Of a stretch of DNA of 64,000 bases, positions 6,562 to 49,570 are shown piece after piece. Source of the DNA: an uncultured delta proteobacterium (GTDB lineage: Bacteria > Desulfobacterota > Binatia > DP-6); assembly GCA_963713495.1 (NCBI GenBank), contig CAVQLX010000015.1, positions 72,738 through 136,737 on the forward strand, given 5' to 3'. The translations under genes and the position numbers were made by a program. Positions within the stretch are counted from its first letter, which is position 1. The number at the start of each line of letters is the position of its first letter. The notes under the pieces are model-generated. The model saw only the letters and a list, made by a program, of their open reading frames with translations, was not told the DNA's origin and did not search any database.

Positions 6562-6564
6562 GCG

Positions 6565-8391
<1,827 letters not shown>

Positions 8392-24256: not shown

Positions 24257-25553
<1,297 letters not shown>

Positions 25554-32163: not shown

Positions 32164-32306
32164 GGGCTCGCAAAAGTCAACGCGCGGCCTTGCGTGTCAA
32201 GGCAGTGCCCGCTAATGTCGCGCGAATCAAGTCAAACGCCATGCAACGAGTGGTGGGGCTGGCAGGGCGGCCCGCAGCGCGGTCACGCGCTCGGACGCGG
32301 GTGCGC

Positions 32307-34421: not shown

Positions 34422-35319
34422 TCGGCTCGCGGCGGCGCGGGCCGAGCACCCCGGCCTGCGCTGCACGGACGATTTCGCCGCGCTCACCGCACGCGCGGAC
34501 GTCGACGCGATCGTGATCGCCACGCCGCCGTCGCGGCACCACGCCATGGCCCTGGCGGCGCTCCGCGCTGGAAAGCACGTCTGGGTGGAGAAGCCGCTCG
34601 CCCTCGCCGCGGCGGACGGCCGCGAGCTGGTCGACGCCGCCGCGGCCGCCCACCGGGTGCTCTTCGTCGACGAGACTTTTCTCTACGATCCCCTGGTGCG
34701 CGAGATGAAGCGCATCATCGACGACGGCGGTCTGGGCGACGTCATGCATCTCTCCTTCGAGCGCCTGGGCATGGGCCGCATCCGGCGCGACTCGAACGTG
34801 TGGTGGAACTCCGCCCCGCACGATCTCTCGATCCTCTTCCACCTGGTGCCGCGGCCGGTCACGGCCATCCGCGCGCACCAGCACACCTACCTGCAGCCGG
34901 GCATCGCCGACATGGTCACCTGCGACCTCGAGCTCGAGGGCGGCGTGTCGGCGCACATCTACCTGAGCTGGCTGCACCCGGAGAAGACCGCGAAGGTGGT
35001 GGTGGTGGGACGCGAGCGCATGCTCGCCTACGAGGGACGCTTCGAGAAGCGCGGCATCACCCTCTACGACTACACGCTCGACCTGACGCCGCCTCCCCGG
35101 TCGGACCGCGGCGCGGTGCCCATCGTGCCGGTCTCGGCGTTCTCCGGCCGTGTCCTGGAGGTTCCTGCCGGCGACGAGCCGCTCGCGCTCGCCGCAACGC
35201 ACTTCGTCGAGTGCATCCGGGACGGCGTCGAGCCGCTCACCAGCGGCGCCCGCTCGCTCCGCGTCGTCGAGGTGCTCGAGCAGGGCGATCGAGGGGCCAC
35301 GCGCGGGGGCGTCGCGTAG
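34300..35319 (+). CDS. Gfo/Idh/MocA family NAD(P)-dependent oxidoreductase (sugar-nucleotide dehydrogenase-like)
   Basis: RBS GAGGAGG 6 nt upstream of the ATG. SIAIVGVGYWGKN Rossmann motif and EKPLA motif. Confidence 0.85.
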   Translation: MDAQHPSIAIVGVGYWGKNLLRTFGRLSGARVTTLCDLDPDRLAAARAEHPGLRCTDDFAALTARADVDAIVIATPPSRHHAMALAALRAGKHVWVEKPLALAAADGRELVDAAAAAHRVLFVDETFLYDPLVREMKRIIDDGGLGDVMHLSFERLGMGRIRRDSNVWWNSAPHDLSILFHLVPRPVTAIRAHQHTYLQPGIADMVTCDLELEGGVSAHIYLSWLHPEKTAKVVVVGRERMLAYEGRFEKRGITLYDYTLDLTPPPRSDRGAVPIVPVSAFSGRVLEVPAGDEPLALAATHFVECIRDGVEPLTSGARSLRVVEVLEQGDRGATRGGVA

Positions 35320-36327
35320 TGTCCGCCGGCGGCGAGACGCGCCGCCGGATCCTGAGCCTGCTGTCACTCGCGGCCGGACTCTCGTTGCTCGGCTGGCTCC
35401 TGCACCACACCGGCTTCGAACCCGTGTGGCAGCGCCTGCAAGTGCTCGGCTGGTGGGCTCCGCTGGTCTTCCTGCCGTATCTCGTGGTCGCGATCGCCGA
35501 CGCCCGTGGCTGGCGTCTCGCCCTGCCGTCCAGCCACGCGCGGGCGCATCCCGCTTCCGGGCCTGATGCTCACCCGCATGGCCGGCGAGGCGGTGAACAG
35601 CCTCACCCCGGCGGCAGCGCTGGGCGAGCCGGTCAAGGCGTACCTGCTGCGGCCCTGGCGCGTGACGGGATCCGAGGCCTTCGCCTCGGTGGTCATCTCG
35701 AAGACCGCGCTCATCGCCTCGCAGAGCCTCTTCACCGCGCTCGGCATCGCCGCGCTGATGGCGCGGATCGGCCGGCCGCGGCTCGCGCTCGGCTGGCTGG
35801 TGGTCCTCGTGGTCGGCTGCGTGGTCTTCACCATCGCGCTCGTCTGGGTGCAGCATCGAAACCCGGGCGCCACGCTGTGGCGACTCCTGCGGCGCGTGGC
35901 ACCCCGATCCCGGCTGGTCGATCGGCTCGAGCTCGGCAGCGCCGCGTTCGACCACCGGCTGCGCGAGTTCTACAGCGGAGAGCCGCGGACGTTCGTGCGC
36001 GCATCCACCTGGCACTTCACGGGGTGGCTCCTCGGCGTCGCCGAGGTGTTCGTCATGGTGGCCCTGATGGGCCGCTCGGTGTCCTGGCTCGACGCCTTCG
36101 TCATCGAGACGCTGGCGCAGCCCATCCGCGCGGCGTCCATCGTCGTCCCCGCAGGCATCGGGACCCAGGAGCTCGGCGGCGTGTGGCTGTGCACCTTCCT
36201 CGGCATGGCCGAGGCCGACGCCGTCACCCTGTGGATCTTGAAGCGCGCGCGCGAGGTGCTCTTCGACGGCGTGGGACTCGCCTATCTCGCACAGCACGGC
36301 GGCCGGCGCGCGGTCAGGGCGGAATGA
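35319..36327 (+). pseudogene. Flippase-like membrane protein (lysylphosphatidylglycerol-synthase TM region / UPF0104 family), apparent frameshift near 35535
   Basis: GTG overlaps the upstream stop (taGTGt). N-terminal TM region ...LLGWLLHHTGFEPVWQRL...ADARGWRLALP is in frame 0. ...LTRMAGEAVNSLTPAAALGEPVKAYLL... through the end is in frame 1. Confidence 0.6.
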
Positions 36328-37325
36328 CGATCGAGCGGCGGCAGCTCGGGCGGAGCGGCCTCGAGGTGACGCGCCTCGGACTCGGCCTCGCCGCCATCGG
36401 CCGCCCCGGCTACATCACGCTCGGCCGGGCACGCGATCTCCCGGGGCCGCGCAGCCCGGACGCCATGTGGGCACGCTGTGCCGAGGTGCTCGACGCGGGG
36501 CGCGCTGCCGGTCTCCGCTACCTGGACGCTGCGCGGAGCTACGGGCGGGCCGAGGAGTTCCTCGGACGCTGGCTGGTGGAGCGCGGCGTGGCGCGCGACG
36601 AGGTGACGGTCGGCAGCAAGTGGGGCTACCGCTACACGGCGGGCTGGACGGTGGATGCGCCGGTGCACGAGCAGAAGGAGCACTCGGTGGAACGATTCCG
36701 GGGACAGCTCGCGGAGACGCGCGCGCTGCTCGGCGATCGGGTGGACCTGTACCAGATCCACAGCGCGACGGTGGAGTCGGGGGCGCTCGGCGACGCCGCG
36801 CTGCTCGTCGCGCTCGTCGAGGCGCGGCGGCGTGCCGCGTTCCGTGCCGTCGGGGTCACGCTGAGCGGTCCGGAGTCGGCGCGCGCACTCGAGCTGGCGC
36901 TCGCGGCGCGCGTCGACGGCGAGCGTGTCTTCGACGTCGTCCAGGCGACCTTCAACGTCCTCGAGCCGTCGCTGGGTCCGCGGCTCGCGACGGCACACGA
37001 CGAGGGACTGGGCGTGATCGTGAAGGAGGTGCACGCCAACGGCCGGCTCGCCGACACGAACGACCGACCCGACGACCGCGTGCTGCTCGCCGGGCTGCAC
37101 GCGGCCGCGCCCGGAGTGCCGGTCGACCGGCTCGCCGTCGCCTTCGTCCTGGCGCATCCATTCGTCGACGTCGCGCTCTCGGGCGCGGCGACGGTCGCGC
37201 AGCTCGCGTCGCACGCCGCGGCAGCCGGGACGCCCGCGCCGGATGGCGTGCGCGAGCGGCTGGCCGCGCTCGCCGAGCCTCCCGAGCGCTACTGGCGTAC
37301 CCGCGGCGCGCTGCCCTGGAGCTGA
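36324..37325 (+). CDS. Aldo/keto reductase
   Basis: ATGA overlap with the upstream stop. LGRSGLEVTRLGLG...SKWGY...IVKEVHANGRL AKR motifs. Confidence 0.85.
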   Translation: MTIERRQLGRSGLEVTRLGLGLAAIGRPGYITLGRARDLPGPRSPDAMWARCAEVLDAGRAAGLRYLDAARSYGRAEEFLGRWLVERGVARDEVTVGSKWGYRYTAGWTVDAPVHEQKEHSVERFRGQLAETRALLGDRVDLYQIHSATVESGALGDAALLVALVEARRRAAFRAVGVTLSGPESARALELALAARVDGERVFDVVQATFNVLEPSLGPRLATAHDEGLGVIVKEVHANGRLADTNDRPDDRVLLAGLHAAAPGVPVDRLAVAFVLAHPFVDVALSGAATVAQLASHAAAAGTPAPDGVRERLAALAEPPERYWRTRGALPWS

Positions 37326-37987
37326 GCCGCGCGCAGCACGCGCGCGAGGAGCACCAGGGTCACGATCCAGAACACGTGCGCGCCGACCGCGGCCGCCGGC
37401 ACGAGCCACCCGAGGCGGCCCGCGAGCGCGAACGCGACCGGGAAGACGTACCAGTCACGCGTCGTCAGCGGTCCGAGCACCCCGTCGAGCACCCGGTTCT
37501 CCCAGCGCGCCACGCGGCGGCGGCGCGATTCCGTGACCTCGCTCCACGTGATCGCTGCGAAGGCGCCGGCCACGCCGAGGCCGAGCGCCCCGAGGACGGG
37601 CCATCCCGGCACGGGCCCCGACCGCACCAGCCGGCGCACGATGCCGGCGAGCAGCGCGACGGCCACCAGCGTGTCGCCGGCGACGTCGAGCACGTGACCG
37701 AGCCGGGACTCGGCGTGCCGCAGACGCGCGAGCTCGCCGTCGCAGCAATCGAGGATGCCCGACGCGACGAGACACGCGACGCCCGCGAGCACACCCGCCG
37801 CGCCGCCGCTCCCCACCAGCCACCCGCCAGCGACGCCGATCGCCGCGCTCGCGAGCGTGACCGCGTTGGGCGAGATCGGCGTGGGCAGGAGCGCTCGCGT
37901 GAGCGGACGCGCGAGCGGGCGGTAGAGCAGCCGGTCGATGTAGCCGTCGCGCGGGTTGCCCGGGACCGGTTCCGCGCCGCTGGTCAT
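37289..37987 (-). CDS. CDP-alcohol phosphatidyltransferase family membrane protein
   Basis: Signature DCCDGELARLRHAESRLGHVLDVAGD (D-x2-DG-x2-AR...G-x3-D-x3-D) and about 6 TM helices. The ATG overlaps the upstream stop (ATGA). Confidence 0.8.
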   Translation of the reverse strand: MTSGAEPVPGNPRDGYIDRLLYRPLARPLTRALLPTPISPNAVTLASAAIGVAGGWLVGSGGAAGVLAGVACLVASGILDCCDGELARLRHAESRLGHVLDVAGDTLVAVALLAGIVRRLVRSGPVPGWPVLGALGLGVAGAFAAITWSEVTESRRRRVARWENRVLDGVLGPLTTRDWYVFPVAFALAGRLGWLVPAAAVGAHVFWIVTLVLLARVLRAAQLQGSAPRVRQ

Positions 37988-38721
37988 GCGTCGCGGAGCG
38001 CCTCGATGCGCGGCAGCACGTCCCGCTCCGCGCGGACGACGTCGTCCGGAAAGTCGATCTCGATCCACGGCAGGCCGTCGACCCGTTCGAATCCCACCTC
38101 CACCCGTGCCAGCAGCGCGGGGTACACCTCCTCGTGCTCGATGCCGGTGTCGCCGGCCTGCACGCGCGCCTCGAGGAGCTCGCGCAGGAGCGACGCCGCC
38201 GAAGCGGAGAGCTTCAGGAATCCGATCGACTCGCCCATCAGCTCGTACCCGGGCGCGCCGCCGCGCACGATGTCGCGCACCCGGCCGTCGCGCACCAGCA
38301 GCATCTGCTCCTCCCCGGTGTTCTCCTGCGCGGCGTCGAGGAGGAAGCAGTCGGCGTGCGGCGAGCGGACGAGGCGGTCGAGCATCACCTGCGCACAGAG
38401 GACGTCCGCGTCCATGACCAGCACCGCCCGGTCGAGCGCGTCCCGCGCCGTCCACAGCGAGAGGATCGCACCCTCGCGGAAGCGCGTGTTGGTCACGCAG
38501 CGCACGTCGATGCCGCGCACCCCCGCCGCCAGCGCGGCGCGCACGAGATCGTCCCCGAAGCCGGTGACCACCACGGCCTCGCGCACGCCGGCGGCCGCGA
38601 GGCCATCCAGCAGCCGGAGCAGCAGGCTGCGCCCGGCGATCTCGATCAGACACTTCGGCGTGCCGCCCGACGTGCCGAGGAGACGCTTGCCGACGCCGGC
38701 GGCGAGGATGATCGCGGTCAC
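37984..38721 (-). CDS. MobA-like / LicC-type sugar- or headgroup-phosphate nucleotidyltransferase (cytidylyltransferase candidate)
   Basis: VTAIILAAGVGKRL...TPKCLIEIAGRSLL N-terminal NTP-transferase motif. The GTG overlaps the stop of the transaminase (GTGA). Confidence 0.75.
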   Translation of the reverse strand: MTAIILAAGVGKRLLGTSGGTPKCLIEIAGRSLLLRLLDGLAAAGVREAVVVTGFGDDLVRAALAAGVRGIDVRCVTNTRFREGAILSLWTARDALDRAVLVMDADVLCAQVMLDRLVRSPHADCFLLDAAQENTGEEQMLLVRDGRVRDIVRGGAPGYELMGESIGFLKLSASAASLLRELLEARVQAGDTGIEHEEVYPALLARVEVGFERVDGLPWIEIDFPDDVVRAERDVLPRIEALRDA

Positions 38722-39779
38722 GCGGCCGGCGCCTCCAGCGCCTCTCCCAGCGCCGCGAGGAAGCGCGTGAAGTCGCCGCGCGAGAGCGCGCCCATGTTCG
38801 CGACCCGGAACGCCTCCCTGGCGAACGCGCCCTGGCCTTCGTAGATGACGAAGCCGCGCGCCTTCAGGGCATCGTGCAGCGCGGCGTAGGTGCGCCCGGC
38901 GGGGAAGCGAAGCGACGTGATGGTGTTCGAGAGCAGCGCGGAGGGCAGCACGCACTCGAGACCGAGACGCGCGAAGCCCACGCGCAGGAGCGTCGCGGCC
39001 GACGCGTACCGCGCGATGCGTGCGGCGACCGTCTCCTCGAGCAGCTCCGCGAGCGCCTCGTCGAGCGCGTACGCCACCTGCACCGCCGGCGTGAACGGCG
39101 TCGCGTGCGTCACGTAGGTCGCGAGCGAGAGATAGATCGAGCGCCGCGGATACGTGACCAGCCGCGCCATCACCTCGTCGCGCACCAGCACGAACCCGAG
39201 GCCGGGAAACGCCTGGATGCACTTGCCGCTCGTGCCGACGACCAGGTCGCACGCCCCCAGGTCGAGCGCGTCGCCGGCGAGACCGCTCACGGCATCGACC
39301 AGGACGAGCTTGCCGAGCGCGCGCGCACGCTGCGCGATGACGGCGACGGGGTTGAGCAGGCCCGTCGTGGTCTCGTGCTGCACGACGGCGACCGCCTCGA
39401 CGTCCGGCGCGCGCAACGCGTCCTCGACGGCGTCGAGGTCGGGCGCCGACGTCCAGGCCGATCCCACCACGGTGTGCGGGACGCGGGACGCCTCGGCCAT
39501 GGCGGCGATGCGCTCGCCGTAGACTCCGTTCGAGACCACGACCAGCCGGCCGCGCGGCGAGCACACGCTCGTCACCGCCGCCTCGACCGCCGCGGTGCCG
39601 GAGCCGGTGAGCAGCACGGCGGTGAATCCGCCGCGCGGGGCGAACGCCTCGAGCAATCGCGCGCGGACGCGCGCCAGCAGCTCGGCGCACTCGGGCTCGC
39701 GATGACAGATGTCGCCGCGCGCGAGGGCCGCGGTGACCCGGGGGGAGACGTTCACGGGCCCCGGGTTCAGCAGGATCAT
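38718..39779 (-). CDS. Class V (AGXT/PhnW-type) aminotransferase; candidate 2-aminoethylphosphonate--pyruvate transaminase
   Basis: MILLNPGPVNVS N-terminus, fold-type I class V region ...LLTGSGTAAVEAAV... and PLP-lysine region VVGTSGKCIQAFPGLGFV. Function inferred from context with ppm/ppd. Confidence 0.7.
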   Translation of the reverse strand: MILLNPGPVNVSPRVTAALARGDICHREPECAELLARVRARLLEAFAPRGGFTAVLLTGSGTAAVEAAVTSVCSPRGRLVVVSNGVYGERIAAMAEASRVPHTVVGSAWTSAPDLDAVEDALRAPDVEAVAVVQHETTTGLLNPVAVIAQRARALGKLVLVDAVSGLAGDALDLGACDLVVGTSGKCIQAFPGLGFVLVRDEVMARLVTYPRRSIYLSLATYVTHATPFTPAVQVAYALDEALAELLEETVAARIARYASAATLLRVGFARLGLECVLPSALLSNTITSLRFPAGRTYAALHDALKARGFVIYEGQGAFAREAFRVANMGALSRGDFTRFLAALGEALEAPAA

Positions 39780-41299
39780 CGCGGGCCGCTCCGTAGCATC
39801 GCACGCTGCGCCACGCCACCCGCGCGGTTCCAGCGCTCGAGCGCGCGGGCGAGCCGATCGACGCCCGCGGTGATCTCGCGTTCCGGGACGCCCGCGTAGC
39901 CGAGGTGGAGCCCGCGCCGGACGGGAGCGCTCACGTGATAGAGCGAGAGCGGGGGCGCGATCACGTCCTCGGCGCTCGCCGCCAGCGACGCAGCGACGTC
40001 GTCGGCGCCGGCCGCCAGCATCCCGGCGACCTGCATGCCGCCGTCGCGCGCGTCGACCGCGAGGATGCCGTCGAGACGGCGGCGCAGCGCGCGCACGAGA
40101 CGGTCCTGGCGTGACGCGTAGAGCGCGCGCATGCGGCGCACGTGCGCCGCGAAGTGGCCGTCGACGATGAAGTCTGCCAGCGCCGCCTGCAGATCGGCCG
40201 CCACCTGATGGCCGGTGAGCCGGACGGCAACCGTGAAGGCGTCGACCAGCGCCGCCGGGACCACCAGGTAGCCCGCGCGCAGCGCGGGGAACATGGTCTT
40301 GCTGAAGGTCCCGAGATAGACCACGCGGCCCGCCGCATCGAGGCCCTGCATGGCGGCGACCGGACGGCCGGCGTAGCGAAACTCGCTGTCGAAGTCGTCT
40401 TCGAGCACCCAGGCGCCGGCCCGTGCGGCCCAGGCCAGCAGCGTCAGGCGGCGCGCGAGGCTCATCGTGACACCGAGCGGGAACTGGTGTGACGGCGTCA
40501 CGTACACGAGGCGCGCGTCACCGCACGTGCGCGCGCCCGCGTCGACGTCGATTCCCTCGCCGTCGATCGGGACGGGGACGAGGCGGGCGCCCGCGGCGAG
40601 GAGGGCGCCGCGCGCGCCGAGGTATCCGGGATCCTCGATCCATGCCGGATCGCCCGCGTCGAGCAGGAGGCGGCAGGAGAGATCGAGTCCGGCCTGCGAG
40701 CCGGCCACGATGATCACCTGCGACGGGTCGCACGTGACGCCGCGCGCCGGCCCGAGATAGGCGGCGATGGCCTCGCGCAGCGACGGGAGGCCGGTGGCAT
40801 GCGTGTAGCCCAGGTTGCCGCGCGCCGGGAGGCGGGCACGCCGCGCGAGCAAGCGTGCCCAGACGTCGCGCGGAAACAGGTCGACCGCCGGCAAGCCGGG
40901 CTGGAACGCGCGCCGCAGCGGATCGGCCGTCGGGCGGCGCGCCGCGACCATCGCCTCGCCGCGACGCGACAGCCCGGGCGTCGCACCGCGCGGCGCGGGC
41001 GGCACGCGGGTGCGGCGCGCGTGCAGCAGCGTCTCGGGCAGCACCGCGGCGACGCGCGTTCCGTCGCCGACCCGGGACTCGAGATAGCCCTCGGCGACCA
41101 GCTGCTCGAACGCGGTCACCACCGTGTTGCGTGCGGCACCGACGTCGCGGGCCAGCGTGCGGGTCGCCGGCAGGCGGGTTCCGGGGCGTAGCCGCCCGGC
41201 CAGGATCGCCTCGCGCAGCGCGCCATACAGCTGGCGGTGGAGCGGCTCGCCGCCGCGATCGAGGGAGAGGGTCCCGAGGACGGCGCCGCGACGTGGCAT
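39776..41299 (-). CDS. MocR/GntR family transcriptional regulator with a PLP aminotransferase-like effector domain
   Basis: GntR wHTH (LPATRTLARDVGAARNTVVTAFEQLVAEGYL) followed by a fold-type I aminotransferase domain. Internal ATG at 41299 chosen (MPRRGAVLGTLSLDRGGEPLHRQLYGAL). The stop overlaps the transaminase start (ATGA). Confidence 0.8.
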   Translation of the reverse strand: MPRRGAVLGTLSLDRGGEPLHRQLYGALREAILAGRLRPGTRLPATRTLARDVGAARNTVVTAFEQLVAEGYLESRVGDGTRVAAVLPETLLHARRTRVPPAPRGATPGLSRRGEAMVAARRPTADPLRRAFQPGLPAVDLFPRDVWARLLARRARLPARGNLGYTHATGLPSLREAIAAYLGPARGVTCDPSQVIIVAGSQAGLDLSCRLLLDAGDPAWIEDPGYLGARGALLAAGARLVPVPIDGEGIDVDAGARTCGDARLVYVTPSHQFPLGVTMSLARRLTLLAWAARAGAWVLEDDFDSEFRYAGRPVAAMQGLDAAGRVVYLGTFSKTMFPALRAGYLVVPAALVDAFTVAVRLTGHQVAADLQAALADFIVDGHFAAHVRRMRALYASRQDRLVRALRRRLDGILAVDARDGGMQVAGMLAAGADDVAASLAASAEDVIAPPLSLYHVSAPVRRGLHLGYAGVPEREITAGVDRLARALERWNRAGGVAQRAMLRSGPR

Positions 41300-41388
41300 G
41301 GCGCGGGAAGACTTACCTCCATAATGGCTCCACTGGAAAGAGCGAAATGGACCTTCTCGTGGTACCAATCGTGTGCGATGAGGGGCGC

Positions 41389-42048
41389 ATGAATGCGACC
41401 GGCACCTTCGCACAGACCGAGCGGACCCGCGTGCGCCGCCTTCCGCAGCGCGCGTCGTACGACGTCGAGACCGTCCACGGCATCCTGGACGCCGGCCTCG
41501 TCTGTCACGTCGGGTTCGTCGAGGACGGCCGTCCCGTCGTCATCCCGACCGCGTATGCACGCGTCGGCGACACCGTGGTGCTCCACGGCTCGAGCAAGAG
41601 CCGCACGCTGCTCGCCGCCGCCGGGGGCGCAGAGATGTGCGTCACCGTCACGCACCTCGACGGCCTCGTGCTGGCGCGCTCGGCGTTCCACCACTCCGTC
41701 AACTATCGCTCGGTGGTGATCTTCGGGCACGCCGCCGAGGTGACCGATCCGGCGCGCAAGCGGGAGCTGCTGCGCGCGTTCACCGAGCGCCTCTATCCGG
41801 ATCGCTGGAGCGTGGCGCGTCCGCCGAACGAGCAGGAGCTGAAGGCCACGCTGGTCGTCGAGCTGCCGCTGCGCGAGGCCGTCGCCAAGGTCCGGACGGG
41901 CGGGCCGATCGACGACGCGGAGGACATGAGCCTCCCGGTCTGGGCCGGCGTCGTCCCGCTGCGGCTGGTCGCGGGCGCGCCGGAGGCCGCCGAGGATCTC
42001 GCCGGCGCGCCGTCACCCGCCGCGCTGGCGTGGCCGCCGGAGCACTGA
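41389..42048 (+). CDS. Pyridoxamine 5-prime-phosphate oxidase family (FMN-binding split barrel) protein
   Basis: COG3467-like: ...VETVHGILDAGLVCHVGFVEDGRPVVIPTAYARVGDTVVLHGS.... RBS GAGGGG before the ATG at 41389. An alternative start is at 41347. Confidence 0.65.
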   Translation: MNATGTFAQTERTRVRRLPQRASYDVETVHGILDAGLVCHVGFVEDGRPVVIPTAYARVGDTVVLHGSSKSRTLLAAAGGAEMCVTVTHLDGLVLARSAFHHSVNYRSVVIFGHAAEVTDPARKRELLRAFTERLYPDRWSVARPPNEQELKATLVVELPLREAVAKVRTGGPIDDAEDMSLPVWAGVVPLRLVAGAPEAAEDLAGAPSPAALAWPPEH

Positions 42049-42086
42049 CAGAGCGCGCGCGGAGCGCTCGGCGTCGTCGCCCTCGC

Positions 42087-42647
42087 CTAGCGGCGAGGCG
42101 GTCCGAACGTGCGCTCGAAGAGCCCCTCGACGGCGGCGCGCCCGTTGTCGCGCACGAAGCGCGTGCCGGTTCCCGTGAAGTGCGGGTGCGTGATGACGGG
42201 AACCTGCCCCGCCTGCCACGTCTCGCCGGTCCACTGGAACCAGCCGTCCTGATCCTGATCGAACACGTGCAGCCGCTTGTTGAAGAACTTCGCGTACTCC
42301 GCGCTCACGCCGGTTCCGCCGACCACGGTCCCGTCGGGCTGGATCTTCCCCACCAGGAAGATGTCCTGCCCGTTGTTCACCTGATGCCAGATGCTCTGCA
42401 GGACCTTCCGGAAGAGGGGCGTGTCGGGGTAGCGGCGGTTCATCAGCTTGCTGACGTACGTCAGGCTCACGTCGCCGTGCTTCAGCTCGGCACTGGTGAG
42501 CACGCGGATGCCGCGGGTCCTGGCATCACCGTGTCCCTCGAAGGTGAAGTTCACCTCCTCGATGCCGTAGCGCTCCGCGGTCTCGCCGAACGCTGCCTCG
42601 GCGCCCTGGGCGGCACCGCTGAAGAGGATGCATTCCTCGGGCTTCAC
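42087..42647 (-). CDS. Hypothetical protein, possible Rossmann-like (SLOG/DprA-LOG-like) fold; compositionally atypical
   Basis: Intact 186-aa ORF. N-terminal ILFSGAAQGAEAAFGETAERYG resembles SLOG-type nucleotide-binding loops. It is enriched in K/N/F/Q/W relative to its neighbours. Confidence 0.45.
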   Translation of the reverse strand: MKPEECILFSGAAQGAEAAFGETAERYGIEEVNFTFEGHGDARTRGIRVLTSAELKHGDVSLTYVSKLMNRRYPDTPLFRKVLQSIWHQVNNGQDIFLVGKIQPDGTVVGGTGVSAEYAKFFNKRLHVFDQDQDGWFQWTGETWQAGQVPVITHPHFTGTGTRFVRDNGRAAVEGLFERTFGPPRR

Positions 42648-43983
42648 GGCGTGTCCTCCGGCGGTGCCTTGTTCCCGATCCCGACCGTGGCGTCAACCCG
42701 CTGGCCGCGCCGCGCGTCGCGCTCGCGCAGCGCCTCGTACACGGGCCGATCGCGGAGGATGGCCGCGAAGAGGTAGGCGGCGAGGGCGGCCGTCGCCTGG
42801 GGGATCAGGTACCGTCCCGAGTGGGTGAGCTCGACCAGAAGCACGAGACCGGTCATCGGCGCGCGAACCGAGGCCACGAAGACGGCCACCATTCCCGCCG
42901 TCGCCAGTACGGGCCCGAGCGTGCCTCCACCGAGGTCCGGCGCGAGCACGTGCACGATCGCGCCCACGGCCGCGCCGAGCACCAGCTGGGGCGCGAAGAT
43001 GCCGCCCGGCACGCCACAGCCGTAGCTCGCGAGCGTGAGGGTGAACTTCACCAGGAGGAACACGACGAGGATCGCGAGAGCGGGCTGGAAGCTCCCGCGG
43101 ATCACCGCCCCGCCACCTTCTCGCCGCCGCCGATCGCCGCGGGCAGCCAGCACGCGACGCCTGCCGCCGCGACGCCGACCACGGCCGCGCCGAGCCACCG
43201 CGGTCCCGGCGCGGCCTCGAACACGTCGAGGACTCGCAGCAGCCCGCGGTTGAACGCCACCCCGAGCATCCCGGCTGCCAGCCCCAGGGCGAGAAACAGC
43301 GGCATGAGCGCCGCGGGCGGCGGCGGCACGGGCGGCATCTCGAACATCGGTCCAGGGCCGACCAGGCGCTGCGTGACGAGATACGAGGCCAGCACGGCGG
43401 GCAGCACCGTGGAGACCACCAGGCGGCTCGGCCGCAGCCGCAGCTCCTCGAGCACGAAGATGAAGCTGGCGATCGGGGCGCTGAACGCCGCCGTGAGGCC
43501 GGCTGCCGCGCCCGCGGCGAGCATCGCGCGCCGCGCCCGGACGCCCAGCGGCCCCTCCAGCGCGGACGCGATTCCCGCGCCCAGGTGTATCGTCGGCCCT
43601 TCCCGCCCGAGCGAGAGCCCCGAGACGAGCGCGAGCGCTCCGCCCACGAACTTGACGGGCAGCAGCCGGCGCCAGCGCAGGCGCCGGTCGTGCGCCATCG
43701 CTTCCTCGACGTGCGGGATGCCGCTGCCGGAGGCCTCGGGCGCGAAGCGCCCGGTGAGCCAGCGCGAGAGCGCCGCCCCGGCGCCGAACAGTGCCGCGAG
43801 CGCGAGCCAGCCGAGACGACCCCTGACGAGCGGCGCGATCCGCTCGCTCGACCAGGGAACGTCGGGACCGAGGACCAGCCGGTACCCGCCTCCGACCAGA
43901 CCCGTGATCCCGCCGGCCACCGCCGCGCGCACGGCCGGGCGCGGATCGAACGCCGGTGGCCGTCTGGCGGACGTCTCTGGCAC
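42644..43983 (-). pseudogene. ClC family voltage-gated chloride channel / H+-Cl- antiporter, apparent frameshift near 43115
   Basis: GSGIP and GREGP selectivity motifs are in the 43983 frame. The C-terminal half (...GSFQPALAILVVFLLVKFTLTLASYGCGVPGGIFAPQLVLGAAVG...) is in the 43198 frame. Confidence 0.7.
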
Positions 43984-44002
43984 GAGCCGATGCGCCCGTC
44001 GC

Positions 44003-44569
44003 TCAGGCCCCGAGGACGCGACGCAGCCGCGCGGTCATCTCCGGCGGCGTCCAGGGTATCCGCGGGCCCGGAGATCCCGCCGGACCGAGCGCGATGCGCA
44101 CCAGGAGGAACGCCGGCCCGTCACCTTCGAGAAATCCGGGGAGCACCGCGTCGAGCTCACTCGCCGACTCCACGCGAGCCGTCCAGCGATAGCCGGCGGC
44201 GCGCGCCAGCTCCTCGAGGGCGACGCGATCCGAGATGGTCGGCTGGCCGCCGGTGGACGCGTGAGCCGAGTTGTCGAAGCAGACGTGCAGCAGGTTCGAG
44301 GGACTCGCGGTCGCGATCGTGGCGAGGGCGCCCAGGTTCATCAGCACGTTGCCGTCGCCGTCGAACACGATGACGCGTCGATCGGGACGTGCCAGCGCGA
44401 CCCCGAGGCCGATCGACGCGGCCAGTCCCATCGAGCCGATCATGTAGAAGCAGGCGTCGGTGTCGCGCGCGCCGAACGCCGCGCGCGACAGGAACCCGTT
44501 GGCATGCACGCGCACCTCGTCGCCGAGGTGCGGAACGATCCGCTCCAGCGCGTCGCGCAGCGTCATCAT
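44003..44569 (-). CDS. Phosphonopyruvate (sulfopyruvate-type) decarboxylase beta subunit, TPP-binding C-domain
   Basis: TPP motif IVFDGDGNVLMNLGALATIA and IGSMGLAASIGLGVA. The start ATG overlaps the alpha-subunit stop (GTGATGATG). Confidence 0.8.
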   Translation of the reverse strand: MMTLRDALERIVPHLGDEVRVHANGFLSRAAFGARDTDACFYMIGSMGLAASIGLGVALARPDRRVIVFDGDGNVLMNLGALATIATASPSNLLHVCFDNSAHASTGGQPTISDRVALEELARAAGYRWTARVESASELDAVLPGFLEGDGPAFLLVRIALGPAGSPGPRIPWTPPEMTARLRRVLGA

Positions 44570-45090
44570 CACCCATGCTCCGTGAACAGGCCGGGCTTCA
44601 CGAGGAGCGCGACGGGCTTGCGCGTCGCGGAGAGCGTGGCAGCGGCCCAGTCGACGTCGGCGAGCACGGTCGTCGCATCCGGATCGCGATGCGGGATGGC
44701 GAACAGATCGAGCAACGGGGCCAGGACGCCGCCCATCACGAGGTGCTCGGGCGCGTCCTTCCCCTCGTATCCGCGCCACGTGATCACGAGGAGGACGGGC
44801 AGCTCGTACAGGATGTGCAGCGAGCCGAGCGCGTTCAGCGACACGCCGAGACCGGAGTTCTGCATGATCACGACCGGCCGGCGGCCGCCCAGGTAGGCAC
44901 CCGCGGCGACGCCGAGCGCCGCGTCCTCGCGTGTCTCGCCCAGGTAGCGGCCGCGACGCTCGAGCTCGGCGATCACCGGGCCGACGAGCGAGCAGGGGAC
45001 ACCGGCGAAGAAGTCGAAGCCGGCGGCGAGGAGTCGATCGACGAAGCTGGCAGCGGAGACCGGAGCGGTCAGCGCGCCACCTCCGCCCAC
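44569..45090 (-). CDS. Phosphonopyruvate (sulfopyruvate-type) decarboxylase alpha subunit, TPP-enzyme N-domain
   Basis: FVDRLLAAGFDFFAGVPCSLVGPV...VVIMQNSGLGVSLNAL. In-frame GTG at 45090, overlapping the end of ppm by 22 nt. Confidence 0.75.
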   Translation of the reverse strand: MGGGGALTAPVSAASFVDRLLAAGFDFFAGVPCSLVGPVIAELERRGRYLGETREDAALGVAAGAYLGGRRPVVIMQNSGLGVSLNALGSLHILYELPVLLVITWRGYEGKDAPEHLVMGGVLAPLLDLFAIPHRDPDATTVLADVDWAAATLSATRKPVALLVKPGLFTEHG

Positions 45091-46721
45091 GCCCGCCGGT
45101 AGTCGTCGAAGCTGTCGATCTCCATCCAGCCCTTGTGGATGTCGACCGCGACCACCGGGTGCCCGCGATCGATCAACGCCTGGAAGATGTGCGTGATGCT
45201 GCTGCGCTCCAGCCCCTCGGCGCGTTGCGCCGTCAGCTCGGCGTGGACGTCGAGCAACGTCTTCGCACCCGCGGCCGACAGCATGGCGAGCCCGATGAAC
45301 TCGCCGTGCGCCTCCTCGGGGCGCACCTCGGGCCCGATGCGCAGCACGCGGCTTCCGCCCTCGGGCGCGACGAAGCGACGGCCGTTGGGCGGCGTCTCCG
45401 TGACGACGAGATCGAGCGGGCCCGGGGGCGGCGGCATGCCGGCCTGGAGCGTGTCGACGAAGGCGCGATCGACGACGACCGCGACGTCCGCCGTCGAGCG
45501 CACGAGCTTCTCCAGGACCGGCGGCTCGAAGATGATGTCGCCGTAGAGGATCACGCACGGCCCGCTCAGCTCCGCGCTCGCGCACAGCAGCGACTCCAGC
45601 TCGCCCGTCTCGGCGAACCGGTCGTTGTCGACGTAGCGCGCGCCGTCGGCCGCCACCTGCTCCTTCTTGTATCCGCGTACCACCACGACGTCGCGGATGC
45701 CGACGCGCCCGAGCGACTCGATCTGACGGTCGAGGATGGTGCGGCCCTTCACCTCGAGCATCGTCTTCGGACGATCCTGGGTGAGCGGCAGGAGCTGCGG
45801 CTCGAATCCCGCCGCGAGGATGACGGCCTTCGGGGCCTCCGCGCCGGCGAAGAGGAAGCGCTGCTCGTTCGCCTTGAGCTCCGGGACGCCGACCAGGCGA
45901 TAGACCTCTTCCAGCGGCACGATCCGATCGTCCACGCTGGCCGCGCGGCCGGTCTCGCGCAGCCGCAGCAGGGTGTCGCGCATGGCGACGATGGCGGCGC
46001 GCAGCGGCTGGTTGGCGAAGATCGACATGCGGAAACCCGCCGCGGCGAGCTCCTCGAGACCGACCTCCGCGTAGGTGGTGGGCACCGCCACGAGAGGAAC
46101 GTGCGGCGACCCGTCGACGCGCCACCGATCGGCGAACCGGCGCAGCTCGCCGAAGTCGCGCTCCTTCGAGTGCACCAGGACGGCGTCGGCGCCCGCGTCG
46201 GCATAGGCCTTCGCGCGGTGCAGGGCGTCGTCGATGCCGAGGCCGGCGATCAGCGCCTCGGTGCGCGCGATGACGGCGAAGTCGGAGCTGCGCCGGGCCG
46301 AGCACGCCGCCTCGATCTTGCGCGCATGCTCCTCGGCCGCGACCAGATCGCGGCGCACCCCGGCGTAGAAGCTGCACCGCTTGGGAAACTCGTTGTCCTC
46401 GATGCAGATGCCCGCGGCACCGGCACGCTCGAACTCGCTCGCCGTGCGCATCACGTTGATGGCGTTGCCGTAGCCGTTGTCGCAGTCGGCGACGACCGGG
46501 ATGGTCACGGCATCGCAGATGCGACGGACCGCATCGAGCGTCTCGGTGAGGGTGAGGATGTTGGCGTCCGGCACGGCCTGGACCGCCGAGATGCCGAACC
46601 CGCTCGCCCAGACGGCGTCGAATCCGGCTTCCTCTGCGAGCTTGGCCGAGAGCGCATCGTGGGCACCTGCCGCCAGCACCACCCCCGGCCGCTCGAGCAA
46701 CCGCCTCAGACCCCCTGGCAT
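45069..46721 (-). CDS. ppm: Phosphoenolpyruvate phosphomutase fused to a C-terminal PntC/LicC-like nucleotidyltransferase domain
   Basis: Ppm/ICL-fold N-domain with the signature EDNEFPKRCSF (EDKxxxxxNS) and ...ADCDNGYGNA.... C-terminal approximately 250 aa KAVILAAGFEPQLLPLTQDRPKTMLEVKGRTIL is an NTP-transferase fold. 550 aa. Confidence 0.85.
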   Translation of the reverse strand: MPGGLRRLLERPGVVLAAGAHDALSAKLAEEAGFDAVWASGFGISAVQAVPDANILTLTETLDAVRRICDAVTIPVVADCDNGYGNAINVMRTASEFERAGAAGICIEDNEFPKRCSFYAGVRRDLVAAEEHARKIEAACSARRSSDFAVIARTEALIAGLGIDDALHRAKAYADAGADAVLVHSKERDFGELRRFADRWRVDGSPHVPLVAVPTTYAEVGLEELAAAGFRMSIFANQPLRAAIVAMRDTLLRLRETGRAASVDDRIVPLEEVYRLVGVPELKANEQRFLFAGAEAPKAVILAAGFEPQLLPLTQDRPKTMLEVKGRTILDRQIESLGRVGIRDVVVVRGYKKEQVAADGARYVDNDRFAETGELESLLCASAELSGPCVILYGDIIFEPPVLEKLVRSTADVAVVVDRAFVDTLQAGMPPPPGPLDLVVTETPPNGRRFVAPEGGSRVLRIGPEVRPEEAHGEFIGLAMLSAAGAKTLLDVHAELTAQRAEGLERSSITHIFQALIDRGHPVVAVDIHKGWMEIDSFDDYRRAWAEVAR

Positions 46722-46926: not shown

Positions 46927-48384
46927 ATGCGTACGCTCTTCTTGAATCCGCCGTCGTACGACGACTTCGACGGAGGCGCGGGCTCACGCTACCAGGCGAA
47001 GCGCGAGGTCTGGTCGTTCTGGTACCCCACCTGGCTCGCCTACCCGGCGGGCATGCTCCCGGGGGCGCGGCTGCTCGACGCGCCGCCGGAGGGTCTGAGC
47101 GTCGAGGACGTCGTGCGCGTGGCGCGCGACTTCGATCACGTCGTCATCCACACCAGCACACCGTCGTTCCGGGCGGACGTCCGCACCGCCGAGGCGCTGA
47201 AGGCGTCACGACCCGACACCGTCATCGGATTCGTCGGCGGACACGTCAGCGCGCGCCCCGAGGAGTCGCTCCGCTTCAGCGGCGCGCTCGACTACGTCGC
47301 GCGCAAGGAGTTCGACCTGGCCGTCGTGGCCGTCGCCAATGGCCGCCCGCTCGCCGACGTGCAGGGAATCAGCTTCCTCAGCGAGGGACGCTACGTCCAC
47401 ACCGACGAGCCCGCTCCGCTCGACAGCGAGCAGCTCGACGCGCTGCCGTTCGCCACCGACATCTACGCGCGCGACCTCGACTACAAGAAGTACAACAGCC
47501 CCTACTGCCAGTATCCGTACGTCTCGCTCTACACCGGCCGCGGCTGCCCGGCGCGCTGCACGTTCTGCCTCTGGCCGCAGGTGACGACCGGACACAGCTA
47601 CCGCACCCGCAGCGTCGCCAACGTGCTCGCGGAGTGCGCGCACGTGAAGCGGCTCTTCCCGGAGATGAAGGAGCTGTTCTTCGACGACGACACCTTCACC
47701 GCCGACCCGAAGCGCGCCGTCGAGATCGCGAAGGGGCTCGGCAAGCTCGGCATCACCTGGTCCACCAACTCGCGCGCCAACGTGGACCGCGAGACGCTGC
47801 AGGCGCTCGCCGAGAACGGGCTGCGTCTCTTCGTGGTGGGCTACGAATCGGGGAACGAGCAGATCCTGCGCAACATCCGCAAGGGAGTCGGCGTCGACCG
47901 GGCCCGCCGCTTCACTCGCGACTGCCACGACCTCGGCATCCTGATCCACGGCACGTTCATCCTGGGGTTGCCGGGCGAGACGCGCGACACGATCGTGGAG
48001 ACGATGCGGTTCGCGGACGAGATGCGGCCGGAGACGCTGCAGGTGTCGCTGGCGTCACCGTATCCGGGGACGGCGATGTACGACTGGGTGCGGGAGCGCG
48101 ACTACCTGACCGTCGACAGCCTGGTCGACGACACCGGCTACCAGAAGTGCACCGTGAGCTATCCCGAGGTGTCGGCGGACGAGATGTTCCGCGCCGTCGA
48201 GACGTTCTATCGCCACTACTACTTCAGCCGTCGCTACATCTGGAAGTCGATCAAGAAGATGGCGCGCGACCGCGAGGAGCGGAAGCGGCTCCTGTCGGAG
48301 GGGCGGCAGTTCCTCGGCGCGATGTGGAAGCGCCGCCAGATCGCCGCCGCGGCGGGACGCTCGGACCTCTCCACGGGGAGCTGA
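46927..48384 (+). CDS. hpnJ: Hopanoid biosynthesis-associated B12-binding radical SAM protein HpnJ
   Basis: N-terminus MRTLFLNPPSYDDFDGGAGSRYQAKREVWSFWYPTWLAYPAG is highly characteristic of HpnJ. Radical SAM CPARCTFC. RBS GGGGAAAGGG. Confidence 0.85.
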   Translation: MRTLFLNPPSYDDFDGGAGSRYQAKREVWSFWYPTWLAYPAGMLPGARLLDAPPEGLSVEDVVRVARDFDHVVIHTSTPSFRADVRTAEALKASRPDTVIGFVGGHVSARPEESLRFSGALDYVARKEFDLAVVAVANGRPLADVQGISFLSEGRYVHTDEPAPLDSEQLDALPFATDIYARDLDYKKYNSPYCQYPYVSLYTGRGCPARCTFCLWPQVTTGHSYRTRSVANVLAECAHVKRLFPEMKELFFDDDTFTADPKRAVEIAKGLGKLGITWSTNSRANVDRETLQALAENGLRLFVVGYESGNEQILRNIRKGVGVDRARRFTRDCHDLGILIHGTFILGLPGETRDTIVETMRFADEMRPETLQVSLASPYPGTAMYDWVRERDYLTVDSLVDDTGYQKCTVSYPEVSADEMFRAVETFYRHYYFSRRYIWKSIKKMARDREERKRLLSEGRQFLGAMWKRRQIAAAAGRSDLSTGS

Positions 48385-48385
48385 C

Positions 48386-49570
48386 GTGATCGCCCTGGTT
48401 CCGCTCGTGCTCGCGTGCTCCGCGATCGCCAGCTTCTACCAGCTCCTGCAGATCGTGGCGGCGCGGCGCTTCCTCCTGCGCTCGCGCCGTCTCCCGACCG
48501 GATACACCCCGCCCATCACCGTGCTGAAGCCGCTCAAGGGTCCCGGGGTCGAGCTGGCGACGAACCTCGAGACCTTCTGCCGTCAGGACTATCCCGAGTA
48601 CCAGATCGTGTTCGGCGTCGAGGACGCCGGTGACCCGGCGGTGGAGATCGTCCGTTCGCTCATGCGCCGGTTTCCCGACCGTGACATCACCCTCTCGGTC
48701 GGGGACGAGGAGGGAGCCAACCGCAAGGTCGCGAGCCTGGTGCACATGATGCGGCACGCCCGGCACGACGTGCTGGTGATCAGCGACGCCGACATCCGCG
48801 TGCGACCCGACTACCTGCGTACGCTGGCTGCTCCGCTGTCTGACCCGACGGTGGGGCTCACCACCTGCCTGTACCGCGGTCGCTCCATCATCGGGCTCCC
48901 GTCGCTGATCGAGTCGCTGTTCATCAACACCGACTTCCTGCCGATGGTGCTGATGGCGCAGTGGGTACAGCGATTTCGCTACGCCTACGGCGCCTCGACG
49001 GCGTTCCGGCGCGAGGCGCTCGCCGGCATCGGCGGATTCGACGCCCTGCGCGATCACCTCGCGGACGACTACGTGCTCGGCAACCGCATCGCCGACGCGG
49101 GATGGCGGCTGCTGCTGCTGCCCTACGTGGTCGAGACGGTCCTCGACTCGCGCACCCTCGGCGACGTCTGGCGACACCAGCTGCGCTGGGCGCGCACCTA
49201 TCGGGCATGCCAGCCCTTCGGCTGGTTCGTCTCGCTCATCGTCCACACCATGCTGTGGGGCGTGCTGGCGGTGCTCGCCACGAGCGGGTCGACCGTCGGC
49301 TGGATCGCGCTCCTCACGGCCATCGTCGCGCGCGTCGGGGCGCTTCGCGTGATCCTCGGCATGCTCGGCGATACGGCAACCGTGCGCGAGCTGTGGCTCG
49401 TGCCGCTGAAGGACCTCGCCTACTCGGCGGTCTGGATGACCTCGTGGCTCGGACGCGACGTCGTCTGGAGCGGGCAGCGCCTGCGCGTGCTGCCCGACGG
49501 TCGCATGCTCCCGCTGGACGCCGTCTCCGAACCGGCCCTCCCGTCGAAGCTGGCGGCGCCGTCGCGCTGA
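48386..49570 (+). CDS. hpnI: Hopanoid biosynthesis-associated GT2 glycosyltransferase HpnI
   Basis: TVLKPLKG...QDYPEYQIVFGVED...DAD motifs of HpnI-type GT2. GTG start 2 nt after the hpnJ stop. Confidence 0.8.
   Translation: MIALVPLVLACSAIASFYQLLQIVAARRFLLRSRRLPTGYTPPITVLKPLKGPGVELATNLETFCRQDYPEYQIVFGVEDAGDPAVEIVRSLMRRFPDRDITLSVGDEEGANRKVASLVHMMRHARHDVLVISDADIRVRPDYLRTLAAPLSDPTVGLTTCLYRGRSIIGLPSLIESLFINTDFLPMVLMAQWVQRFRYAYGASTAFRREALAGIGGFDALRDHLADDYVLGNRIADAGWRLLLLPYVVETVLDSRTLGDVWRHQLRWARTYRACQPFGWFVSLIVHTMLWGVLAVLATSGSTVGWIALLTAIVARVGALRVILGMLGDTATVRELWLVPLKDLAYSAVWMTSWLGRDVVWSGQRLRVLPDGRMLPLDAVSEPALPSKLAAPSR

Follow-up and report, generated by a model that had tools for sequence, protein, structure and literature searches.

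Gene content of the locus

A 64-kb window (the whole stretch of contig CAVQLX010000015.1 analysed here) from an uncultured, high-GC soil bacterium of the Binatia or "delta proteobacterium" metagenome-assembled genome (MAG) type contained a cluster of genes predicted to make 2-aminoethylphosphonate (AEP), to activate it with a cytidylyl group and to pass it on through a CDP-alcohol phosphotransferase. Hopanoid genes lay next to the cluster (Table 1). Since the G+C content of the window was ~72%, raw lists of open reading frames (ORFs) were crowded with shadow frames; genes were chosen by third-position GC and inspection of start sites. Family scores were taken from NCBIfam profiles against their curated cut-offs, and domains from Pfam. 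An Omp85 gene in the window indicated a diderm host. An actinomycete such as Streptomyces, which the high G+C content had suggested, was rejected on this ground and because all relatives were Binatia or "delta proteobacterium" MAGs.

Profile searches detected PEP_mutase, two-subunit thiamine pyrophosphate (TPP) decarboxylase, class-V aminotransferase, nucleotidyltransferase (NTase) and CDP-OH_P_transf domains on the minus strand where a preliminary description of this DNA had placed them. The single stand-alone NTase listed there was present, but a second NTase, fused to the Ppm-like protein, had been overlooked, and the cluster therefore has two. The phosphonate block had also been described without its hopanoid flanks (HpnJ, HpnI and HpnK) and without the aldo/keto reductase (AKR), HpnL-like and GFO genes at its other end. 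The 4-nt overlaps reported between the last four genes (ATGA, GTGA and ATGA) were real, but that set includes a MocR regulator, and the supposed single dedicated operon was interrupted by ClC, SLOG-like, PNPOx (plus strand) and MocR genes.

Table 1. Features of the phosphonate locus and its flanks, with positions numbered in the 64-kb window
Feature	Position	Strand	Profile or remark
GFO/IDH/MocA oxidoreductase, UDP-GlcNAc 3-dehydrogenase-like	34300..35319	+	First of GFO-HpnL-AKR unit
HpnL-like LPG_synthase_TM / flippase-like membrane protein	35356..36327	+	TIGR00374, 63.8 bits (cut-off 43.2)
Aldo/keto reductase (AKR)	36324..37325	+	Convergent with transferase gene; conserved in Binatia-type loci
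CDP-alcohol phosphotransferase, 232 aa	37987..37289	-	CDP-OH_P_transf, PF01066
NTase2, stand-alone PntC/IPCT-like cytidylyltransferase, 245 aa	38721..37984	-	PF12804
AepZ/PhnW-type class-V aminotransferase, 353 aa	39779..38718	-	TIGR03301, 310 bits, E 2.5e-92
MocR/PdxR-type regulator, GntR + aminotransferase fold	41299..39776	-	NF052282 PdxR, 406 bits (cut-off 320)
Pyridox_ox_2 (PNPOx-like)	41371..42048	+	Divergent from MocR gene
SLOG / Mo-carrier-like fold protein, 186 aa	42647..42087	-	No Pfam match; predicted fold
ClcA-type H+/Cl- exchanger, two ORFs (43983..43102 and 43105..42644)	43983..42644	-	Frameshifted
Putative phosphonopyruvate decarboxylase beta, TPP_enzyme_C, 189 aa	44572..44003	-	TIGR03297 best
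Putative phosphonopyruvate decarboxylase alpha, TPP_enzyme_N, 173 aa	45090..44569	-	TIGR03297 best
Ppm-like / NTase fusion, 550 aa	46721..45069	-	PF13714, E 7.3e-56 (aa 5-251), and NTP_transf_3
Gating-loop motif E-D-N-E-F-P-K-R-C-S-F, aa 108-118	46368..46400	-	Non-canonical Ppm signature
HpnJ, B12/radical-SAM	46927..48384	+	TIGR03471, 694.6 bits (cut-off 577.6)
HpnI, BHT N-acetylglucosaminyl transferase	48386..49570	+	TIGR03472, 383.3 bits (cut-off 310)
Sulfatase / alkaline-phosphatase-superfamily protein	49786..51408	+	Between hpnI and hpnK
HpnK, YdjC-type deacetylase	51396..52307	-	TIGR03473, 317.6 bits (cut-off 232.6)

A Ppm-like protein with an atypical catalytic loop

The best PDB match of the Ppm-like domain was a phosphoenolpyruvate (PEP) phosphomutase (5unc, E 1e-78). 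Compared with known PEP mutases (PepM/Ppm/AepX, e.g. 1m1b of Mytilus edulis and 5unc of Streptomyces platensis), it had the same PF13714 fold and kept the metal- and substrate-binding residues. D58, D85, D87, E114, K120, S123, R159 and H190 of the Mytilus enzyme (1m1b and 1s2u, the latter a D58A mutant structure) were all identical, and these eight active-site residues were invariant in an alignment of Ppm-like homologues. Like many known Ppm, the window protein was fused to an NTase and adjoined a putative phosphonopyruvate decarboxylase (Ppd); ~60% of Ppm enzymes carry such a fusion (Rice et al. 2019, PMC6697681). The fused LicC-like NTP_transf_3 domain occupied aa 299-418 (LicC 1jyk, E 9.5e-15) and may be a phosphonate cytidylyltransferase.

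In a residue-level alignment the gating loop of the window protein was IEDNEFPKRCSF, against EDKRFPKVNSF in Ppm 5unc, EDKLFPKTNSL in Ppm 1m1b, EDKTFPKDTSL in the hydrolase PPH (2dua) and EDQVWPKKCGH in the lyase 1zlp. With Cys at the position of Asn122 and Asn at that of Lys, the loop reads as a mutase/lyase hybrid. EDNEFPKRCSF had been taken for a PEP-mutase signature in the preliminary description, but the diagnostic motif is the EDKX5NS of Yu et al. 2013; a perfect match to it defines PepM and has been used as a hard filter (PMC6697681, PMC8942020, PMC12723261).

The Ppm-like protein was searched exhaustively against 1.84 billion representatives, and a metagenome scan gave at least 591 confirmed relatives, the best 80 loci of which were compared. 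The loop EDN[ED]FPKRCSF was conserved across all Binatia-type loci, and the closest representative clusters (49-84% identical) all had EDNxFPKRCS[F/L]. Among the top 150 representatives of clusters at 50% identity, 82 were canonical, 27 had (N/S)..CS and 14 had N..NS; unlike known Ppm, the window protein lacks EDKX5NS and belongs to a separate clade that makes up 27 of these 150. In a crude neighbour-joining (NJ) tree the canonical EDK...NS clade did not include the NTase-fused KRCS proteins, which grouped as a clade of their own. The loop EDNx[FY]PKRCS[FL] was present in each of the 80 best metagenome loci, and 79 of them kept the fusion architecture. PpdA or PpdB was found alongside in ~38 of the 80, many of those without a visible Ppd being short contigs, and ~28 also had an AepZ-type aminotransferase. 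A CDP-OH transferase was present in 19, nine of which also had an HpnL-like gene; a few lacked NTase2.

The EDN...KRCS proteins appear to be a sizeable sister clade that is filtered out of current phosphonate inventories. With gene context as the strongest argument, we infer that they act as PEP mutases or at least feed the Ppd/AepZ pathway. The Cys of the loop had raised the question of organo-arsenic (C-As) chemistry; this was rejected because the bisenarsan route uses EPSP-synthase and phosphoglycerate-mutase homologues and no member of this superfamily, and there were no ars genes near the cluster.

Putative decarboxylase and AEP transaminase

The two halves of Ppd, the beta start overlapping the alpha gene (GTGA), were 39-43% identical by blastp to aepY of the published clusters described below, alpha matching the N-terminal half of AepY. 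Ppd adjoined ppm in both genome and metagenome loci. A sulfonate route, in which a sulfopyruvate decarboxylase would lead to taurine, was considered because the halves scored nearly as well on ComDE models. It was rejected because no sulfopyruvate source was encoded, and a sulfonate would presumably not be cytidylylated by such NTase chemistry.

The transaminase scored best by far on TIGR03301 (Table 1), followed by TIGR02326 (227 bits), BhcA (108.6 bits) and SerC (41 bits), and was 42% identical by blastp to the AEP aminotransferase of Mycetohabitans (38-42% across the published examples). It thus grouped with PhnW/AepZ, as had been proposed, and a SerC or serine-glyoxylate identity, named beforehand as grounds for abandoning the proposal, was rejected.

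Stand-alone NTase and CDP-alcohol transferase

NTase2 matched archaeal IPCT (2xme, E 2e-10) and Tde-PntC (6pd1, E 2.6e-9) in the PDB. The NTases of the window share the PF12804 fold with PntC (Tde1415 6pd1/6pd2 and Ari-PntC) and LicC (1jyk), NTase2 being marginally closer to the archaeal inositol-1-phosphate cytidylyltransferase 2xme. Of the two acidic residues with which Tde-PntC contacts AEP, Glu196 corresponded to Glu in NTase2 and Glu104 to Asp, as in LicC. PntC enzymes make CMP-AEP (Rice et al. 2019, PMC6697681). Across the whole of NTase2, blastp gave 37-38% identity to the stand-alone PntC encoded in the published clusters.

The transferase contained the complete motif D(x)2DG(x)2AR(x)8G(x)3D(x)3D (D80, D83, G84, A87, R88, G97, D101 and D105), which was invariant across 13 homologues. 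Its model was all-helical (pLDDT 83.7) with a TM of 0.62 to AF2299, and in Foldseek searches the nearest folds were AF2299, which was also its best PDB match, IPCT-DIPPS and PIPS; CEPT1/CHPT1 folds (human CEPT1 and Xenopus CHPT1 were compared) were far away (E 0.2-0.8), as was PgsA (E 3). Scores on NCBIfam profiles were 45.9 (cut-off 180) for AIP synthase, 39.6 (170) for PIP synthase, 35.9 (580) for IPCT/DIPPS and 28.9 (240) for ClsA. Because every score was far under its cut-off, the transferase was regarded as a distinct subfamily; with these scores and folds, an ordinary PgsA/Pss orthologue, which the preliminary description had named as a finding that would refute it, was rejected.

IPCT/DIPPS and AF2299 (4mnd and 4o6m, Archaeoglobus fulgidus) and the PIP synthases (6h53 and 5d91) have the same catalytic motif and share the pairing of an NTase with CDP-OH. 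The window transferase differed from these proteins in its identity (~20-25%) and in its genomic partner, which was the AEP pathway and not inositol-phosphate synthesis. Among its nearest solved relatives, either the CDP-alcohol donor is soluble or the acceptor is an inositol phosphate, and use of a soluble donor would fit CMP-AEP. AEP has no hydroxyl, and no hydroxylase was encoded, which places AEP on the donor side; the reverse arrangement, a CDP-diacylglycerol donor with a phosphonate acceptor, was rejected for the window on the same grounds.

Homologues 65-97% identical to the transferase came almost entirely from metagenomes. Many homologues were ~365 aa long, with a ~140-aa N-terminal degenerate NTase-like domain, i.e. 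the architecture of AF2299 (e.g. P0059, P0072, P0091, P0107, P0109 and locus L003, 10001-11125); the window transferase is a short form.

Comparison with the Group-1 cluster type

In a survey of RefSeq ppm neighbourhoods, the "Burkholderiales_CDP-OH" families accounted for 318 of 882 (36%) (Li and Horsman 2022, PMC8942020), and that paper matches them to what Yu et al. 2013 had named Group 1 phosphonolipids. Their seven-gene core comprises a Ppm-PntC fusion, Ppd, an AEP transaminase (AEPT), a 2-oxoglutarate (2OG) oxygenase, a second PntC and two phospholipid-type genes (PMC8942020). On plasmid pBRH01 of Mycetohabitans rhizoxinica (L021) the core consisted of CDP-OH, 2OG oxygenase, LPG_synthase_TM, PntC, aepX, aepY and AEPT; B. 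cenocepacia (L023) and Cupriavidus (L024) had the same seven genes, and Roseomonas marmotae (L022) was a further annotated example.

For six of these core components (the Ppm-NTase fusion, Ppd, AEPT, second NTase, CDP-OH transferase and LPG_synthase_TM protein) the window encoded a homologue, all of them falling inside an 11.4-kb segment (35356-46721). By blastp the fusion was 36-38% identical over its full length to its counterparts in Mycetohabitans and Roseomonas, the transferase 30-40% identical to Group-1 CDP-OH over the catalytic half, and the HpnL-like protein, whose position was conserved in relatives, 31% identical to the Mycetohabitans LPG_synthase_TM protein. In a plasmid and chromid collection the CDP-OH subfamily occurred in exactly 15 records, those with a full-length Ppm-NTase fusion. 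The window transferase itself gave no match against plasmids by tblastn at E 1e-3, being too diverged from its Group-1 counterparts, so that its tie to the Burkholderia-type transferase needed direct blastp.

The window differed from Group 1 in several respects. Identities were 30-43%; Ppd was in two subunits; the loop was EDN...KRCS in place of EDK...TNS (EDK[QL]FPKTNSF in aepX of Burkholderia, Mycetohabitans, Cupriavidus and Roseomonas); the neighbouring hopanoid genes were hpnJ-hpnI-hpnK, not shc/hpnH; and the host was an uncultured Binatia-type lineage. A 2OG-Fe(II) oxygenase, present in the Group-1 core, had no tblastn match in the window with the Mycetohabitans query, and plain AEP, not 1-hydroxy-AEP, would therefore be expected; such an oxygenase adjoined a distant KRCS-type locus (L069). 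From these comparisons the window appears to be a divergent member of an already predicted cluster type and not a new design. The system had been called uncharacterised, which holds for its product, but the design has been predicted since Yu et al. 2013, as cited in PMC8942020. New here are the atypical clade of the first enzyme and the recurrence, across phyla, of hopanoid genes beside the AEP / CMP-AEP / CDP-OH / HpnL module.

Conserved gene order and linkage to hopanoid genes

Fifteen genome loci were collected from GTDB contigs, one genome per species. All were MAGs, classified as Candidatus Binatia, "uncultured delta proteobacterium" or Thermodesulfobacteriota, with one Limnocylindria. 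By tblastn the conserved layout was hpnK-hpnI-hpnJ divergent from PpmNT-PpdA-PpdB-[optional insert]-AT-NTase2-CDPOH, the transferase end being convergent with AKR-HpnL-GFO, and ArnT-like and Omp85 genes lying farther on; Pfam-annotated contigs agreed with it. The order PpmNT-PpdA-PpdB-(insert)-AT-NTase2-CDPOH was found in the 15 genome loci and in the 22 closest metagenome loci. In 14 genome loci NTase2 immediately preceded the CDP-OH gene, the fifteenth lacking upstream DNA. In the window, 205 bp separated hpnJ from the divergently oriented mutase gene, and hpnJ adjoined the mutase gene in five of six informative genome loci and in all 21 informative close metagenome loci.

Hopanoid genes also accompanied more distant relatives. 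In a sister lineage with mutase domains 64-66% identical (L057, 10001-16464; L089, 8001-13427; L092, 10001-15556), the operon was PpmNT-PpdA-PpdB-AT-NTase2-HpnK, followed by a methyltransferase or an unknown gene and a CaiB-type CoA-transferase. HpnK (312 bits, cut-off 232.6) was there the last gene of the phosphonate operon, right after NTase2, and these three loci had no CDP-OH gene nearby. The canonical core of Roseomonas lay inside an hpn cluster (hpnA-B-C-D-E-shc-hpnG-hpnH-ispH, core, polyprenyl synthase, hpnN), and that of Mycetohabitans was contiguous with hpnD-shc-hpnB-hpnA-hpnH-ispH-hpnM-hpnN-dxs. More distant KRCS loci carried hpnA-, hpnN- or hpnD-like genes or dxs. As no hopanoid gene was found within 16-20 kb of the cores of B. 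cenocepacia and Cupriavidus, the hopanoid linkage is recurrent across phyla but not universal.

HpnI and HpnK together make bacteriohopanetetrol (BHT)-glucosamine, and HpnJ makes the BHT cyclitol ether. The HpnI, HpnJ and HpnK proteins of the window passed their equivalog cut-offs (Table 1), whereas the HpnL-like protein, although of the same family as the hopanoid-associated hpnL product (TIGR03476), was under its cut-off. Recent hopanoid surveys give the function of HpnL as unknown and do not mention phosphonates (bioRxiv 10.1101/2025.07.29.667474; PMC12583986). Possible "terpene-phosphonates" have been remarked on in passing for Acetobacteraceae (PMC8776678) and Nitrosococcus (PMC8942020, PMC7285500).

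Several loci showed variations of this layout. In the KRCS-type cluster L061 (9140-16363) a short-chain dehydrogenase/reductase (SDR) gene was divergent from the fusion. After the fusion came two small genes of unknown function, a CDP-OH gene, a further unknown gene and the genes for a polyprenyl synthetase and an HpnA-like epimerase. This cluster lacked Ppd and aminotransferase genes, and its product may be an isoprenoid lipid with another phosphonate headgroup. Additional genes were inserted in the phosphonate operon of the Binatia loci L003-L005 (1039-8227) and L016 and L019 (~5450-6720), encoding a prenyltransferase / SQHop-cyclase-repeat protein (322 aa), a small Rieske protein, a B12-radical-SAM protein and a HATPase_c_3 protein, and hint at further tailoring. 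One MAG (MFD02809.bin.2.268, loci L009 and L020) had two AT-NTase2-CDPOH modules, neither with a mutase gene within 8 kb. In the second of them, 48% identical, split matches to the transferase, AKR and HpnL suggest decay or frameshifts.

Proposed pathway and alternative explanations

Each step of the proposed pathway was deduced from homology and gene context. The Ppm-like domain would convert PEP to phosphonopyruvate, and the split Ppd would decarboxylate this to phosphonoacetaldehyde, pulling the unfavourable equilibrium. The AepZ-type transaminase would then form AEP, from which a PntC-type cytidylyltransferase, most likely the stand-alone NTase, would make CMP-AEP with CTP. The AF2299/DIPPS-like transferase would use CMP-AEP as a soluble "CDP-alcohol" donor and, with release of CMP, place the aminoethylphosphonyl group on a hydroxyl of a membrane-anchored alcohol at the cytoplasmic face; the flippase-like HpnL homologue would carry the product to the outer leaflet. 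This general scheme, from PEP through AEP and CMP-AEP to a membrane lipid with an AEP headgroup flipped by an HpnL-like protein, is probably correct, with considerable room for doubt. Its logic of AEP synthesis, cytidylyl activation and CDP-alcohol transfer, set out in the preliminary description, is backed by conserved synteny and homology.

A number of observations weigh against the scheme or against its extension to hopanoids. The loop departs from EDKX5NS at two positions (Lys to Asn, and Asn122 to Cys), and Asn122 is a catalytic-loop residue whose position is altered in the hydrolase PPH as well. Scores were under cut-off for the Ppm-like protein (TIGR02320, 275.6 bits against 319.55, though this was the top-scoring family), for the Ppd halves taken together (TIGR03297, 120.6 + 171.2 = 291.8 bits against 312.5), for the transaminase (TIGR03301, cut-off 360.8) and for the HpnL-like protein (TIGR03476, 142 bits against 195.65), and sulfopyruvate decarboxylase models scored the Ppd halves nearly as high (alpha 114.8, beta 161.7). 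The nearest characterised CDP-OH enzymes (DIPPS) work on soluble acceptors, and no phosphonolipid has been characterised from the Burkholderiales_CDP-OH clusters (PMC8942020). No shc, hpnH or hpnG was found within the 64-kb window; the Burkholderia and Cupriavidus cores stand apart from hopanoid genes; and since the close relatives are one lineage, their shared synteny is partly inheritance.

The atypical loop, with its Cys as in the catalytic loop of lyases, the low TIGR02320 score and the position of the KRCS clade in the NJ tree would also be explained if the first enzyme were another member of the isocitrate-lyase/PEP-mutase superfamily, the product of the cluster then having no C-P bond or the mutase being encoded elsewhere. 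We regard this as very unlikely: the other Ppm active-site residues all align, the greatest overall similarity is to a true Ppm, the loop, fusion, Ppd and transaminase recur together as counted above among the best 80 loci, the place of the gene corresponds to that of aepX in the canonical cluster, and no alternative chemistry fits a context of Ppd, AepZ and cytidylyltransferase. 

Diacylglycerol was an assumption of the preliminary description, which mentioned a hopanoid only in passing; we consider a hopanoid polyol and diacylglycerol about equally possible, each doubtful when taken singly, and gene context points to hopanoids at least as strongly as to diacylglycerol. Tentatively, the product could be a phosphono-hopanoid, with AEP esterified onto the glucosamine or cyclitol headgroup of BHT (HpnI/HpnK/HpnJ) and flipped by HpnL. 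A sub-case of the general scheme that is possible to a similar, limited degree is a classical glycerophosphonolipid only, the AEP analogue of phosphatidylethanolamine formed from CMP-AEP and diacylglycerol as in Tetrahymena, the hopanoid genes being mere neighbours because both are membrane-lipid functions. Eukaryotic CDP-alcohol phosphotransferases that join CMP-AEP to diacylglycerol provide a precedent, the homologous cluster goes by the name "phosphonolipid" in the field (PMC8942020), and two of the canonical cores have no hopanoid genes nearby. On the other hand, the transferase is far from the diacylglycerol-using CEPT1/CHPT1 folds and from PgsA and near AF2299/DIPPS/PIPS, and at least four independent lineages have hopanoid or isoprenoid genes beside the module.

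A surface polymer as the destination of AEP is an unlikely alternative to the lipid, even though characterised AEP decorations are mostly on glycans (PMC6697681). AEP would then end on a glycan or lipopolysaccharide-type polymer, the transferase decorating the sugar of an intermediate linked to polyprenyl or lipid A, and ArnT/PMT_2-like glycosyltransferases, Omp85 and the UDP-GlcNAc-3-dehydrogenase-like GFO protein in the window and its relatives, together with GT2 and DegT genes near the L001 cluster, would fit. Known phosphonoglycan clusters use LicD-type transferases, however, and not CDP-OH_P_transf, and the module shared across phyla consists of NTase, CDP-OH and flippase-like HpnL without glycan polymerases. 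More improbable than any of these is a soluble phosphonate diester, NTase2 and the transferase joining AEP to a soluble polyol as IPCT/DIPPS does in making the osmolyte di-myo-inositol phosphate. The best NCBIfam and PDB matches of the two proteins are indeed the two halves of IPCT/DIPPS, and the long transferase forms retain an AF2299-like N-terminal cytoplasmic domain, but a flippase-like membrane protein is the constant partner, the cluster has no inositol-phosphate synthase or phosphatase, and the neighbouring genes are membrane-lipid genes.

Should the membrane lipid of the general scheme prove to be a phosphono-hopanoid, Group 1, the commonest family of phosphonate clusters in RefSeq, would serve to tailor hopanoids, a function would be found for the orphan hopanoid gene hpnL, and the first step would belong to an unrecognised Cys-loop class of PEP mutase missed by EDKX5NS-based surveys. 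The association with hopanoids lets a single testable hypothesis cover both the Group-1 product and what HpnL does, and in this hypothesis the constant partnership of HpnL with the AEP / CMP-AEP / CDP-OH module is itself a testable lead. It also offers a concrete acceptor to seek, as a predicted gain of C2H6NO2P, or +107.014 Da, in the mass of bacteriohopanepolyols (BHP), and the canonical cluster has culturable carriers in Burkholderia, Mycetohabitans and Roseomonas. If the reading holds, a filter on EDKX5NS would miss the EDN...KRCS clade, and uncultured bacteria of soil and sediment may have more potential for phosphonate biosynthesis than inventories suggest. The change from Asn to Cys in the loop is of mechanistic interest for the divergence of mutases, lyases and hydrolases in the superfamily.

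Inserted and neighbouring genes

The ClC, SLOG-like, PNPOx and MocR genes form a lineage-specific insert. They were rejected as members of the pathway because they were absent from the compact loci L015, L016, L017 and L019, which have no insert; the SLOG-like gene, which belongs to a very large, highly conserved and unannotated family, was also excluded by its occurrence elsewhere in unrelated contexts. Although part of the insert, the MocR gene, whose stop overlaps the transaminase start (ATGA), is transcribed together with the distal pathway genes. A 1-nt frameshift within a G-rich stretch (junction 43102-43105) divides the ClC gene into two overlapping ORFs, its L001 orthologue being one gene of 433 aa. 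The enolase gene (24257-25560) was also frameshifted, the N-terminal 70-odd residues lying in another frame than the remainder. Two broken genes of essential type in 64 kb suggest indel errors of long-read assembly and not real pseudogenes, so that single-gene frames in this window need cautious handling.

The sulfatase-family gene between hpnI and hpnK had weak similarity to phosphoethanolamine transferases and PehA; it was not kept in relatives, which had a histidine kinase or nothing at its place. No RNA element, riboswitches included, was found by an Rfam scan of the window. Elsewhere the window encoded housekeeping proteins (GlmS, GlmU, DsbD, CstA, Asd, enolase and MgtE).

Two ArnT/PMT_2-like glycosyltransferase ORFs lay at 26279-27955 and 29176-32196. 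The second encoded 1006 aa, an ArnT/PMT_2-like sequence reading into an Omp85 C-terminus, and may be a frameshift or fusion artefact. Together with the GFO oxidoreductase gene and the GT2 and DegT genes in relatives, the ArnT-like genes resembled an Arn-type system for periplasmic aminosugar modification of lipids.

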